Positions 22,803 to 48,357 of a DNA stretch of 64,000 nucleotides are shown one piece after another. This DNA is from an uncultured Gemmatimonadaceae bacterium. GTDB lineage: Bacteria > Gemmatimonadota > Gemmatimonadetes > Gemmatimonadales > Gemmatimonadaceae. The DNA is taken from positions 256,001-320,000 of the forward strand of contig CAWBOC010000010.1 of NCBI GenBank assembly GCA_963790305.1. Direction: 5' to 3'. Numbering within the stretch: position 1 is the first letter of the stretch; each line of letters opens with the position of its first letter. Made by a program: the position numbers and the translations under genes. Below the pieces are notes generated by a model. That model saw only the letters and a list, made by a program, of their open reading frames with translations. It did no database searches and was not told the DNA's origin.

Positions 22803-24131
22803 ATGAGCAGCGCACTGCCGCGACGTTTTGGCGTCTGGGCTGCGCTGGCGATGATCATCGCCGAGGTCATGGGGGTCGGCATCTTCCTCACGCCAGCGTC
22901 AATGTCGCGCACCTTCGGCTCGACATCGTGGGTGCTCGCCGTGTGGGGGCTGGTGGGACTTCTGTCAGCCGCCGGTGCGCTGTGCTACGCGGAATTGGGC
23001 AGCCGTTTTCCCGAGGCGGGGGGCGGCTACGTCTACCTGCGTGAGGCCTTCGGGGAGCGGTGCGCGTTTGTCTACGGCTGGATGTCGCTCCTCGTCATGG
23101 ATCCGGGTCTTACCGCGGCGCTCGGCGTTGGACTCGCATCGTATCTGCTCGTCCTGCTTGGCGGATCGCCATCATCCGTGCCGGTGGTGGCGATTGCCTG
23201 CATCGTGGTGCTGGCGACCATATCGACGCTCGGGATCGAGAGCAGCGCACGTGTCCTGCGATGGACCGCGATCGCGAAGCTCGCGACGATCGGTCTGCTC
23301 ATCGTCGTCGTGCTCGTGCGTGGGAATTCGGCTGACCCTACCGTGGTGGCCGTCGATCGCGGAGTCCCAGCATTCCCGGCATTGGCCGGCGCGCTCATGG
23401 GTGCGTTCTTCGCGTTCGGGGGGTGGTGGGACCTTGGCAAGATGAGCGAAGAGATCGTCGAGCCGCGGCGAACACTCCCCGTCGCGCTCGTGGGAGGCGT
23501 GGTCATCGTGACGCTGGTGTACGCGGGCCTGAGCGTCGCGTTCACGCATGCGATGCAGGGCCGGCCGGTGCCCAGCGACGAGGCCTTCGTCGCATCGTTA
23601 GGCTCGGCGCTCTTTGGGGATGGGGCGGGGCAGGTGTTGGCCGGGGCGGTCGTGGTGGCCGTGGCCGGGAGCCTGGCGGCGGTGCTGCTCGGCGCGCCGC
23701 GCGTCTACCTTGCCATGGCGCGGAGCGGCGTCTTCCCCGCGTCGCTGGTTCGCTTTGATCTTCGACGACAATCGGCCCCACGTGCGACGCTCATCCAGGT
23801 CGTGCTGGCATGCCTGCTCGTGATGCTCGGCTCCTTCGACCAGATCCTGGGCTATTTCATCCCGGCGGCGGTGTTCTTTCTCGGACTCTCCGCCGCGGCG
23901 ATCCTGTTCCTCCCGAGACCAGCGGAGAGCCCGGGGATTTTCCGCGCGCCCTGGCACCCGCTGCCGATCATCGTGTTTCTCGTGCTCGTCGTGATCATGG
24001 TGGTGCTGTTCGCGGTGGGGCGGCCGGTCCAGACGGCGATCGGGGCCGCCGTCGTGACGCTCGGGATTCCGATATCGTTCCTCGTCGTCAAAACGCGCGG
24101 GCGGGCGAACGCCGTGTCGGCGCCTGAGTGA
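22803..24131 (+). CDS. APC family amino acid permease
   Basis: G.GIF..P, YAELGSRFPEAGGGYVYL, FAFGGW, many TM. Confidence 0.9.
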   Translation: MSSALPRRFGVWAALAMIIAEVMGVGIFLTPASMSRTFGSTSWVLAVWGLVGLLSAAGALCYAELGSRFPEAGGGYVYLREAFGERCAFVYGWMSLLVMDPGLTAALGVGLASYLLVLLGGSPSSVPVVAIACIVVLATISTLGIESSARVLRWTAIAKLATIGLLIVVVLVRGNSADPTVVAVDRGVPAFPALAGALMGAFFAFGGWWDLGKMSEEIVEPRRTLPVALVGGVVIVTLVYAGLSVAFTHAMQGRPVPSDEAFVASLGSALFGDGAGQVLAGAVVVAVAGSLAAVLLGAPRVYLAMARSGVFPASLVRFDLRRQSAPRATLIQVVLACLLVMLGSFDQILGYFIPAAVFFLGLSAAAILFLPRPAESPGIFRAPWHPLPIIVFLVLVVIMVVLFAVGRPVQTAIGAAVVTLGIPISFLVVKTRGRANAVSAPE

Positions 24132-24204
24132 GGACCATGCTCCTATCGCAAACGCTTTCAAAAGCACAGTGCGGGATGAGCCACAAGCCAAGGGGGAATA
24201 ACGG

Positions 24205-24774
24205 ATGACCTGGATCAAGACTGTCGAATTCGACGACACGGACCCCGCGCTGCGCCGCGCGATCGAGATGCAGCGCGCGCTCTATCCGGTGGAGTACGCG
24301 ACGCCGGTGCATCCGGTGGCGGGAGGGCAGACGTCGGGGATCGTCGCATCGCACAGTCTCATCCCCGATGCGCTCTATCACGCGTTTGCGACATTCGGTG
24401 TGCTAATGTCACCCGAGTTGCCGCTCACGCGCCGTCAGCACGAGATGATCACGACCATGGTCTCGGAGACGAACCGCTGTAAGTATTGAATCGACTCGCA
24501 CGCAGAGTTTCTGCGTCGGGTCACGCTCGATGAGGCATTCGTCGAGGCACTGCGTCAGGACTACAGGACCGCGCCGATCTCGGAGGCGGAGCGGGTGATG
24601 CTCGACTACGTCGTGCAGCTGACGAAGGACGCCACGCGCATTACGCCCGAGTATCACGAGCGGCTCCGTGGCGTGGGCTTCGATGATCGTGGAATCCTTC
24701 AGATCACGCTGATCGCGTCGTGGTTTAACTACATCAATCGCGTCGCGGACGCGCTGGGAGTGGGAAGGCAGTAG
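24205..24774 (+). CDS. AhpD/CMD-family peroxidase-related selenoprotein candidate (Sec95, CxxU)
   Basis: NRCKY-TGA-IDSH; frame stays open to TAG at 24772 with [17 protein letters not shown]-like hairpin follows the TGA. Confidence 0.88.
24493..24522 (+). promoter_or_regulatory. Bacterial SECIS-like hairpin
   Basis: GACTCG-c-ACGCAGA-[GTT]-TCTGCGT-CGGGTC; apical GU loop 17 nt after the UGA. Confidence 0.75.
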
Positions 24775-24927
24775 GGGTCAGGAGTCAGGGGTCAGGGATC
24801 AGGGGTCAGGGATCAGGGGTGGAAAGGGGCCGCCGCGCTTCGCGCGTGCGGCCCTCATCAGATGGGCGCGGCAGCTTCGCTGCCGCGCCTTACCACCCCT
24901 GATCCCTGACTCCTGACTCCTGACCCC
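24774..24927. repeat. Inverted GG(G/A)GTCA heptamer arrays enclosing a three-hairpin core
   Basis: Direct reading; homologous to 48214-48357. Confidence 0.9.
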
Positions 24928-24967
24928 TTCTTCACAAAGGCCGAGGCGGCCCCCAACTTCGTCCCGC

Positions 24968-26383
24968 ATGGAGAAGCCACGCCTCAGCTTCTGGCAGATG
25001 TTCAACATGAGCTTCGGATTCCTCGGCATTCAGTTCGGCTGGGGGCTGCAGCTCGCCAACATGTCGGCGGTGTACGAGCGGCTCGGCGCCCGGCCGGACG
25101 AGGTCCCGCTGCTCTGGCTCGCGGCGCCGGTCACCGGGCTGCTCGTGCAGCCCATCGTCGGCGCCCTCAGCGATCGCACGTGGGGGGCGCTCGGGCGCCG
25201 CCGCCCGTATTTCCTCACCGGGGCAATCCTCGCCTCCATCGCGCTCTTCATCATGCCGACGTCCACGACCCTGTGGATGGCGGCTTCGCTGCTCTGGATC
25301 CTCGACGCCTCCATCAACATCTCGATGGAGCCGTTCCGCGCCTTCGTCGCCGACAAGCTCAACACGAGTCAGCGGACCGCGGGCTTCGTCATGCAGTCGT
25401 TCTTCATCGGCGTCGGCGCGAGCCTCGCGAATGCGCTCCCGCTCGTGCTCAGCCGCCTCGGCGTCGAAGGGAATACCGCGAGCGGAATTCCCCTTTCCGT
25501 GAAGTACTCGTTCCAGGTCGGGGCGGCGGTATTCCTGTTCGCCGTCCTCTGGACGGTATTCACGACGACCGAGTTTCCGCCGGAAGACCCCGCGGCGTTC
25601 GATCGCGCGCGCCGCGACCGTCGTGGGCTCGGCAACCTCGTGCGCGAGATCGCGGAGTCCATTCGCGGGATGCCGCCTACCATGCGTCAGCTTGCCGTCG
25701 TCCAGTTTTTCACCTGGATGGGGCTCTTCTGCATGTGGCTCTTCTTCGTGCCGGCGACGGCGCGCCACGTGTTCGGCGCTACCGACACGCAGTCGGCCGT
25801 CTACACGCAGGGGATGGAGTGGGGCGGGGCCGTGTTCGCGTTCTACTCGATTACCTGCTTCATCGTCGCGCTCGCGCTTCCGAAGCTCGCCGCGCTCACC
25901 AGCCGCAAGACCGTCCATGCGTTCGCGCTCGTGTGCGGCGCGGTGGGCCTGCTCTCCGTCTACGTCATTCACGATCGGTATCTCCTCATCCTCAGCATGG
26001 TCGGCGTCGGGATCGCGTGGGCATCCATCCTCTCCATGCCGTACGCCATCCTGTCTACGGCGCTGCCGGCGAGCCGCATGGGCGTGTACATGGGCGTGTT
26101 CAACTTCTTCATCGTCATTCCCGAGATCATTGCCGCGTTAGGCTTCGGCCCCTTGATCCGCACCGTGTTCGGGGAGAACAATGCGCAGGCGCCGCTCTAC
26201 ATCGTCATGCTGGGCGGCGTGTTTCTGTTGACGGCGGCGGCGTGCGTGTCGTTCGTGCGGGACGTGGGCGAACGGAACGTGCCGGAGGGCGACGTCATCA
26301 GAGCCGACGCGCAGGAGCATCTGCTCGCGCAGCCTGGAGTTCAGCCCGTGCCGAGTAGCGGGCTCGTCGACGAGTCTCGATGA
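24968..26383 (+). CDS. MFS sugar transporter (maltose/sucrose GPH-like)
   Basis: [45 protein letters not shown]. Confidence 0.92.
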
Positions 26384-47070: not shown

Positions 47071-48216
47071 ATGCACATGCTCGTTCTCGGCGCGGGGCTT
47101 CAAGGCTCCGCGTGCGCTTATGATCTGCTTCAAAATCCCGAGGTCACGGAGGTCCGGCTCGCCGACATCCGCATCGAGCATCTCGCCGATTTCCTGGCTC
47201 CGTACTCGGGAAGCCGGCTGATTCCCACCCATCTGGATGTGCGCGATCACGAAGCCGTCCGCGCGCTCATGCGAGAGAGCGACGCCGCCATGAGCGCCAT
47301 CCCCTACTACTTCAATCTCGATCTCGCCCGCCTGGCTGCTGAAACGGGCACGCACTTCTGCGATCTCGGCGGCAATACGGAGATCGTCTTTCAGCAGAAG
47401 CGACTCGAGGCGAGGGCGCGGGAAAGCGGGTGCACGATCGTCCCCGATTGCGGTGTGGCGCCGGGGATGGTGAACGTCCTCGCGCAGTATGGCATCGAGA
47501 AGCTCGACAAGGTGAAGTCGGTGAAGATCTACGTCGGGGGCCTCCCACAGCATCCCGAGCCCCCGCTCAACTATCAGATCGTGTATTCCCTCGAGGGCGT
47601 GCTCGACTACTACACGACGCTGTCATGGGTGGTACGCGACGGAAAACGCACCCAGGTGAAGGCACTGTCCGAGCGCGAGAAGGTGTCGTTTGCGCAGCCA
47701 GTCGGTGAGCTGGAGGCGTTTCACACCGCGGGCGGCCTCTCGACGATGGCGTTCCGGTACGAGGGAAAGATTCCCACGATGGAGTACAAGACGCTGCGCT
47801 ATCCGGGTCACGCGCACATCATGGAGGCGATTCGCGATCTCGGTCTGCTCGACCTGGCGCCGGTCGACGTGAAGGGAGTGAAGGTCGTGCCGCGCGACCT
47901 GTTCGTGAACGTGGTCGGTCCGCGTCTCACCAAGCCGACCGGTCGCGACCTGGTCGCCCTCCGCGTGATCGTGGAAGGGACGAAGGACGGCAAGGCCAAG
48001 CGCGTCGGGTGGGAGCTGCTCGATTTCTACGATGAGGCCCGCGGCATCAGCGCGATGATGCGCACGACGGGATTCTCACTCTCGATTACCGGCCAGATGC
48101 AGGTGCGCGGCGAGATCACGCCGCCCGGTGTGTGGACGCCTGACGAGTGCGTGCCCGCCGCCCGGTATGTTGCGGAGCTGGAGCGGCGAGGAGTGCATGT
48201 GCGTGAGGTGAGTTAG
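47071..48216 (+). CDS. Saccharopine dehydrogenase / lysine 6-dehydrogenase family
   Basis: VLGAGLQG, DLGG, CGVAPG, YVGGLP, YKTLRYPGH. Confidence 0.88.
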   Translation: MHMLVLGAGLQGSACAYDLLQNPEVTEVRLADIRIEHLADFLAPYSGSRLIPTHLDVRDHEAVRALMRESDAAMSAIPYYFNLDLARLAAETGTHFCDLGGNTEIVFQQKRLEARARESGCTIVPDCGVAPGMVNVLAQYGIEKLDKVKSVKIYVGGLPQHPEPPLNYQIVYSLEGVLDYYTTLSWVVRDGKRTQVKALSEREKVSFAQPVGELEAFHTAGGLSTMAFRYEGKIPTMEYKTLRYPGHAHIMEAIRDLGLLDLAPVDVKGVKVVPRDLFVNVVGPRLTKPTGRDLVALRVIVEGTKDGKAKRVGWELLDFYDEARGISAMMRTTGFSLSITGQMQVRGEITPPGVWTPDECVPAARYVAELERRGVHVREVS

Positions 48217-48357
48217 GGGTCAGGGGTCAGGAGTCAGGGGTCAGGGGTGGAAAGGCGGCGCGGCTTCGCCGCTGCCGCCTCATTCTGATGAGCAAACGGC
48301 AGCGCTGTTGCGCTGCCGTTTGCCTTTCCACCCCTGACCCCTGACTCCTGACCCCTA
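48214..48357. repeat. Inverted GG(G/A)GTCA arrays with a three-hairpin core; ends coincide with both flanking stop codons
   Basis: Begins TAG, ends CTA; homologous to 24774-24927. Confidence 0.9.

Follow-up and report, generated by a model that had tools for sequence, protein, structure and literature searches.

The window analysed here is a stretch of 64,000 nucleotides (nt) from an uncultured Gemmatimonadaceae bacterium. It corresponds to positions 256001-320000 of contig C10 of a 4.31-Mb genome in 13 contigs, with a G+C content of 66% and a completeness of 94%. On its forward strand lies a gene of the AhpD-like family that is interrupted halfway by an in-frame TGA, at the place of a predicted selenocysteine (Sec, U). 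The ATG at 24205 opens a reading frame of 94 amino acids (aa), the first stop of which is the TGA at 24487-24489. The same frame continues for 94 further codons up to the TAG at 24772-24774, giving a read-through product of 189 residues with the redox motif R91-C92-K93-Y94-U95-I96-D97-S98-H99. An earlier inspection of the letters (the sequence-only reading) had placed the TGA where the second cysteine of the AhpD motif belongs and had extended the frame by 94 codons to 189 aa. Translation and alignment to solved structures bore out the position, and the TAG confirmed the length. The coordinates of all features are given in Table 1.

The product matched the NCBIfam model TIGR01926 ('peroxidase-related enzyme') with 104 bits against a curated cut-off of 81.8, and the match covered residues 51-186 on profile positions 37-173 of 178, across the TGA. 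Weaker matches were obtained with two NCBIfam models named '(seleno)protein'. The carboxymuconolactone decarboxylase (CMD) family of Pfam (PF02627) was matched by residues 65-117 with 31.9 bits against a gathering score of 23; this match names the fold superfamily and not a decarboxylase activity. Five PDB entries (2pfx, 3c1l, 2oyo, 6k40 and 2prr) aligned over residues 54-186 with E-values from 1.4e-21 to 2.2e-14. The best was 2pfx (residues 54-184, E 1.4e-21), and in both printed alignments (2pfx and 3c1l) U95 faced the second Cys of the CxxC motif. The profile and PDB matches ran through the TGA rather than ending there, and the alignments with the PDB entries are by themselves enough to assign the fold.

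The genomes of 40 relatives were searched in six frames for homologs (E <= 1e-10). Homologs were found in 19 of the 40 (20 of 41 when the source genome is counted), and all 8 congeners had one. Every full-length ortholog of the relatives' genomes (11/11, including 8/8 congeners) carried TGA at the same codon, at 76-93% identity and with the motif N-R-C-[KR]-Y-U-I-[DE]-S-H. In a one-genome-per-species collection at least 589 related loci were confirmed. The best 80 of these, with 74-92% identity, were examined and TGA was present in all of them; a protein pattern permitting either U or C likewise gave TGA in 80/80. According to the record titles, 66 of the 80 best loci came from Acidobacteriota, 13 from Gemmatimonadota and 1 from Planctomycetota, the acidobacterial orthologs belonging mostly to Pyrinomonadaceae/Blastocatellia.

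The orthologs from the relatives' genomes and the best 80 of the at least 589 loci gave a set of 91, from Gemmatimonadota, Acidobacteriota and one Planctomycetota bin, and the TGA position was identical in 91/91. The whole reading frame was kept in these orthologs at 74-93% identity. Downstream of the TGA many residues were invariant with freely varying synonymous codons, showing purifying selection on the protein in this part as well. E80, C92, U95 and H99 were each invariant in the 91 orthologs, with a spacing of 12, 3 and 4 residues. The paralogs at 28-38% identity likewise had CxxU, and the sole two homologs lacking the TGA (loci L036 and L042) carried Cys at this position. Two of the checks proposed with the sequence-only reading were that relatives should have the TGA in common and that homologues should pair it with Cys. 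The first came out in favour of a conserved TGA in the congeners and the 80 best loci, and for the second Cys was found in the distant homologs and in the solved structures.

The 91 orthologs were then codon-aligned on the TGA, and in each column the synonymous codons of the consensus residue were counted. The codons +4 to +9 (His, Ala, Glu, Phe, Leu, Arg) used one and the same codon in 91, 91, 91, 90, 91 and 89 of the 91 orthologs, and some of these frozen codons were uncommon elsewhere in these same genes. All other degenerate codons between -45 and +92 had a synonymous entropy of 0.47-2.2 bits, even where the amino acid was invariant. The frozen bases coincided exactly with a 17-nt hairpin at 24500-24516, of which the seven core pairs form in 89 to 91 of the 91 orthologs. 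The sequence-only reading had described a longer hairpin with 13 bp, one bulge and a GUU loop 17 nt downstream of the TGA. In this genome the structure is there as described, with 17 nt between the A of the UGA and the first loop base and the extended stem starting 3 nt after the UGA. Its upper 7 bp proved to be the conserved part, and the lower six pairs did not: individually they form in 19 to 91 of the 91 orthologs. Because all six occur together in only 11/91, the predicted lower stem is a trait of this lineage and not of the selenocysteine insertion sequence (SECIS) element. The true SECIS, as delimited by the ortholog alignment, is the 17-nt mini-hairpin of 7 bp with its GUU loop, which SelB is predicted to recognise.

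The Escherichia coli fdhF SECIS is the classical bacterial Sec insertion element, and an upper stem-loop of 17 nt, located some 11 nt downstream of the UGA, is reportedly sufficient there. The hairpin found here resembles it in its place inside the coding region, directly 3' of the UGA, and in having a small apical loop that contains G and U. The conserved core is also 17 nt long and starts 10 nt after the UGA. The hairpin differs from the fdhF element in its 3-nt loop, GUU, and in lacking a bulged U within the conserved part. An Rfam scan of 24100-25000 gave no match on the hairpin and no matching Rfam family. Bacterial SECIS elements are described as having a small apical loop containing G (PMC1088965, in the text available), and the present stem-loop, directly 3' of the UGA, has such a loop. 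In the paralog subfamilies other hairpins were seen at the same offset, one with a 6-bp stem and a GGUC loop and one with a 6-bp stem and a 5-nt CGGGY loop. By our reading, one compensatory pair appears to distinguish the hairpins of two of these subfamilies.

The genome also contains the genes for making and inserting Sec, in line with the earlier proposal that the organism has the Sec trait. A tRNA-Sec gene (73.1 bits, anticodon TCA) lies directly downstream of selD. The selD gene was recognised with 359 bits, selB with 261 bits and selA in two pieces with 264 and 233 bits; all three protein genes are frameshifted in the assembly, as discussed below. The selD gene carries its own Sec codon near the N-terminus, in another frame than the rest of the gene. 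A TGA that was first assigned inside selD turned out to be an out-of-frame artefact at the frameshift junction.

Further selenoprotein genes were sought by family searches, and five candidates were found (Table 1). Behind the UxxC peroxiredoxin (Prx)-like candidate lies a hairpin of 7 bp with the loop GGU. A scan for redox motifs bridged by TGA, filtered by G+C content at third codon positions (GC3) and by hairpins, was abandoned after it missed its positive controls, the AhpD-like gene and selD. Genome-wide reassignment of TGA was excluded, as 752 of 1228 long open reading frames (ORFs) of the genome terminate at TGA, which makes it the commonest stop codon.

The co-occurrence of Sec genes and TGA-type homologs was tallied in the 40 relatives, as a consistency check given that kin are not independent; the tally includes one genome flagged as unpublished (G015), with selA and no homolog. 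Of 18 genomes carrying a TGA-type homolog, 17 have selA, and the exception is a 71% complete genome that has selB and selD. None of the five genomes without selA (95-100% complete) had a TGA-type homolog, and the Cys type was found in one of them.

Table 1. Features of the AhpD-like selenoprotein gene and of the Sec-related genes elsewhere in the genome. Positions without a contig name are those of the window.
Feature	Position	Strand	Observation
AhpD-like selenoprotein gene, 189 codons + TAG, one in-frame TGA	24205-24774	+	Translation, profiles, orthologs
Putative Shine-Dalgarno-like stretch, purine-rich, 8-14 nt before ATG	24190-24196	+	Reading of the sequence
Glu80 codon, 12 residues before Cys92, proposed proton-relay residue	24442-24444	+	Glu in 91/91 orthologs
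Cys92 codon TGT, first position of CxxU	24478-24480	+	Cys in 91/91 orthologs; TGC and TGT both used
UGA, U95 (predicted selenocysteine)	24487-24489	+	TGA in 91/91 orthologs; aligned to second Cys of CxxC
His99 codon CAC of CxxUxxxH	24499-24501	+	CAC in 91/91 orthologs, CAT in 0; last two bases begin the SECIS stem
Extended hairpin, 13 pairs, bulged C 24499, GUU loop 24507-24509	24493-24522	+	-17.9 kcal/mol
Conserved SECIS core (predicted), 7-bp stem + GUU loop, 17 nt	24500-24516	+	Starts 10 nt after UGA; -8.2 kcal/mol
selA	C9:116300-117800 (outside the window)		1-nt frameshifts
selB	C6:48800-50800 (outside the window)		1-nt frameshift
selD	C6:122150-123214 (outside the window)		1-nt frameshift
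Five candidate selenoprotein genes: two TxxU peroxiredoxins, UxxC Prx-like, CxxU SelW/Rdx-like, formate dehydrogenase alpha subunit	C13:83165-83536, C7:84211-84600, C6:402654-403025, C8:72513-72722, C5:291979-293454		In-frame TGA at expected redox position

Based on these results we consider, with a probability of about 0.88, that the locus is a single intact gene encoding a 189-residue AhpD-like (TIGR01926/COG2128) thiol-selenol oxidoreductase, in which the UGA at codon 95 would be read as selenocysteine. By the standard bacterial pathway, SelD would make selenophosphate and SelA would turn Ser-tRNA(Sec) into Sec-tRNA(Sec). SelB, together with GTP and Sec-tRNA(Sec), would bind the 17-nt hairpin in the coding sequence as the ribosome arrives at the UGA, and would supply Sec to the ribosome, competing there with release factor 2. 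In the protein, Sec95 would by analogy replace the second, nucleophilic Cys of the E...CxxC...H centre of AhpD (here E80, C92, U95 and H99). Sec in place of the attacking Cys is the usual rule for selenoenzymes. Sec95 could then attack an oxidised partner, either the sulfenate or disulfide of a peroxiredoxin, or a hydroperoxide directly, after which a selenenylsulfide would form with Cys92 and a thiol donor would re-reduce it. The role expected from this analogy is that of a peroxide-defence oxidoreductase, acting as a peroxiredoxin reductase or as a weak peroxidase itself.

The analogy is drawn from the AhpD of Mycobacterium tuberculosis, a lipoamide-dependent reductase of AhpC. Its centre has the same order and spacing, with Glu, Cys at +12, Cys (here Sec) at +3 and His at +4. 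Residues 77-133 of the product matched positions 115-168 of the AhpD profile TIGR00777 weakly, with 20.6 bits against a cut-off of 191.95. This mapping presumably agrees with the catalytic numbering of the M. tuberculosis enzyme, in which we take the second Cys to be the attacking nucleophile, and the catalytic role given to Glu80 is likewise our assumption from that enzyme. The mechanism is thus probably like that of M. tuberculosis AhpD. By this profile comparison, with a score far below the TIGR00777 cut-off, membership in AhpD proper is not supported, and the two appear to share the fold and the redox centre only.

The AhpD-like proteins with CxxU (COG2128) were described as a new selenoprotein family in the Sargasso Sea study of 2005, with 27 sequences (Zhang, Fomenko & Gladyshev; PMC1088965). 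In the Global Ocean Sampling (GOS) study of 2008 the family 'AhpD-like 1' (COG2128, CxxU) comprised 299 selenoprotein sequences and 902 Cys homologs (PMC2398784). More recently, a 2026 review included the entry 'AhpD-like protein, TIGR01926, CxxU' among its tabulated prokaryotic selenoproteins (PMC13188914), and a database paper of the same year used the AhpD-like family as its browsing example (PMC13326102). The accessible text of these last two sources, searched by term, had no mention of Gemmatimonadota or Acidobacteriota. Among the papers listed by a literature search with 'Gemmatimonadetes' and 'selenoprotein', none concerned such selenoproteins by title or abstract.

The gene found here resembles the published AhpD-like selenoproteins in its profile family, in CxxU with Sec at the second position, in its size of about 190 aa as a single domain, and in its in-frame UGA, behind which lies a small hairpin whose apical loop contains G. 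The published sets come mainly from marine metagenomes, whereas the present gene, likened to them by family, motif and size, is from a soil Gemmatimonadaceae bin. Its orthologs are mostly from Acidobacteriota and Gemmatimonadota and lack a Cys form among the 91 examined. Among proteins of known structure, the AhpD-like DR1765 of Deinococcus radiodurans (PDB 6K40) and the entries 2PFX, 3C1L (Mlr4105), 2OYO and 2PRR have, as judged from sequence, the same fold and the same place of the redox motif. DR1765 and its structural-genomics relatives have CxxC and the gene here CxxU. The DR1765 mutant is described as H2O2-sensitive, with the CxxC cysteines mattering for complementation (PMC8945050, in the text available).

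Several observations weigh against the selenoprotein interpretation. No Cys form was found among the 91 orthologs, and the Sec/Cys pairing depends on homologs with 29-38% identity and on the PDB relatives. The fold of 91 nt around the hairpin had a z-score of -2.09 with 4 of 200 shuffles equally stable, which is modest alone. Because the core hairpin never varies, its upper stem offers no covariation within the orthologs. The neighbouring genes, described below, give no functional hint. Finally, the protein genes of the Sec pathway are frameshifted: selA has two +1 insertions, selB one +1 insertion and selD one -1 shift, and the four shifts in about 4.3 kb (0.9 per kb) are an approximately threefold excess over the background (Poisson P about 0.05), which is inflated by the closer hand inspection of the Sec genes than of the background.

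These frameshifts are the ground for the first alternative, in which the family is a true selenoprotein family and the Sec trait has newly been broken in this strain, so that the UGA now terminates and the gene is a stranded relic. In the source assembly selA is spread across three frames and selB across two, and the single-base insertions in selA (two sites, about C9:116533 and C9:116964) and selB (one site, about C6:49588) were located by DNA alignment with the congeners; the one-base shift in selD lies at about C6:122402. The congeners with matches keep these genes in one frame, with single-frame copies of selA in 7/8, selB in 8/8 and selD in 7/8, each selD having one TGA. The points in favour of such a loss are the four 1-nt frameshifts in the three protein genes of the pathway and their density of about three times the congener-based background. 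If the frameshifts are real, Sec decoding would just have been lost, as the first step of selenoproteome loss. The strain would then retain tRNA-Sec, along with seven or more selenoprotein genes whose frames are intact (AhpD-like, SelD, three of peroxiredoxin type, SelW-like and formate dehydrogenase).

The background was estimated by comparing the ORFs of nine congener stretches (150 kb, without a Sec gene) with the source genome. An initial frameshift survey filtered by GC3 was confounded by antisense ORFs and was replaced by greedy longest-ORF sets and by a more sensitive local tblastn. With the longest-ORF sets the assembly proved to be frameshifted genome-wide, with 20 frame changes in 73.6 kb of aligned source sequence, of which 15 were +1 as in selA and selB. 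One of the sites is inside serine hydroxymethyltransferase and another inside a TonB-dependent receptor that shares 95% protein identity with its ortholog. Four of the 20 fell within 100 residues of the beginning of stop-to-stop ORFs and are possibly upstream of starts; the sites in adenosylhomocysteinase and methionine adenosyltransferase lie before the real start and were not counted as in-gene. The local tblastn detected 26 sites outside the Sec genes over about 84 kb (about 0.3 per kb), a detection still less sensitive than the hand inspection of the Sec genes.

Apart from the 1-nt indels the Sec genes had no lesions: there were no stops and no deletions, the identity to orthologs was an ordinary 75-92%, and tRNA-Sec was intact. 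Six selenoprotein genes retain open frames around their TGA. Among public soil-metagenome contigs (best word share 0.17) none bridged the two selA sites, and one starts 3 nt after the second, an outcome that is neutral as to assembly error. Because the assembly is rich in indels overall, the congeners are intact and the Sec genes are otherwise undamaged, the frameshifts are likely errors of an indel-prone assembly, and we regard a recent loss of the trait in this strain as improbable.

A second alternative takes the TGA as a genuine stop, in a split gene, a pseudogene or two separately translated ORFs. Gene callers do stop there: the public protein collection has the 94-aa piece, and two of the 12 members of its cluster are called 'hypothetical protein'. 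TGA is also the commonest stop codon of the genome. Yet a nonsense mutation is not expected at the identical catalytic codon in 91/91 orthologs of two or three phyla, and the purifying selection on the protein begins with the first codon after the TGA. The TGA is also followed by the frozen hairpin. The next listed in-frame start is a GTG at 24595, 36 codons downstream, and its use would drop His99 and conserved sequence. We therefore give this alternative very little credence. Equally little is left for a UGA read through without selenium, with Trp or Cys inserted by a near-cognate tRNA or with a recoding signal other than SECIS: the inserted residue is a prediction from sequence and the hairpin could in principle stimulate read-through, but the lineage has the full Sec gene set with tRNA-Sec(UCA), the search of the 5 relatives without selA gave no TGA-type homolog, the homologs have the redox Cys at the UGA position, and the small apical loop contains G as given for bacterial SECIS elements (PMC1088965, in the text available).

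The gene thus belongs, as a genuine and so far unannotated member, to a selenoprotein family that was first described in 2005. The sequence-only reading had stated that AhpD-like Sec proteins are known and usually mis-annotated; the family is indeed in print, and the 94-aa N-terminal stump is present in the public protein collection, in a 12-member cluster of which 9 members are 94 aa long and 2 are named 'hypothetical protein'. That collection lacked both the full-length sequence and the C-terminal ORF of 59 aa. What goes beyond the ordinary is the 17-nt SECIS frozen across phyla, the lack of a Cys form in 91 orthologs, and the frameshifted Sec genes of this one assembly, most likely an artefact. 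The practical value lies in annotation, and the knowledge of selenoproteins itself is unchanged. Members of the orthologous group occur widely among Acidobacteriota and Gemmatimonadota of soil, with at least 589 loci in the one-genome-per-species collection; as they are annotated as stumps, the selenoproteomes of soil bacteria are therefore under-counted. The orthologs also provide a clean natural minimal bacterial SECIS, a possible test case for SelB-SECIS recognition outside Proteobacteria.

Within the orthologous group the identity between Gemmatimonadota and Acidobacteriota (Pyrinomonadaceae/Blastocatellia) was 74-81% (loci L077-L156). In a maximum-likelihood tree of the 91 orthologs the Gemmatimonadota formed about four groups amid the Acidobacteriota, on a backbone that did not resolve. 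The interleaving of the phyla is a hint that soil bacteria may have exchanged the gene laterally, and a single origin may also fit the tree. Relatives were also seen to hold up to two additional AhpD-like CxxU paralogs (loci L037-L041 and L045-L051; 28-38% identity). A second TGA-type copy was not found in the source genome by the homolog search (E <= 1e-10) or by a search with the Pfam CMD family. In one relative of the same order (G027, locus L031) a thioredoxin with a Cys-rich N-terminal extension is encoded directly downstream of the ortholog. As a general rule a thioredoxin linkage was rejected, a gene of the WCGPC type adjoining the ortholog in only 3/90 loci (flanks of 600-1500 nt).

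The neighbours of the gene in the window encode an amino-acid permease, a transporter of the major facilitator superfamily (MFS), a glycoside hydrolase family 130 (GH130) phosphorylase and an outer-membrane protein, and among the neighbours checked ahpC was not adjacent. A sigma-70 consensus scan of 24000-25100 found no promoter, and in the promoter and terminator scan of the same region there was one weak terminator-like site on the opposite strand. An intergenic inverted repeat abuts the stop codon (24774-24927). Its arms are runs of a 7-nt unit (GGRRTCA-like) and its centre, between the arms, is GC-rich and about 70 nt long. Matches of Rfam microRNA models on this repeat (scan of 24100-25000) were below threshold, generic for long hairpins, and were rejected as chance resemblances. 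The genome has 140 such repeat arms, with a second copy in the window at 48216-48355, and the repeat is a copy of a dispersed family similar to repetitive extragenic palindromic (REP) sequences or miniature inverted-repeat transposable elements (MITEs), located outside the selenoprotein gene.

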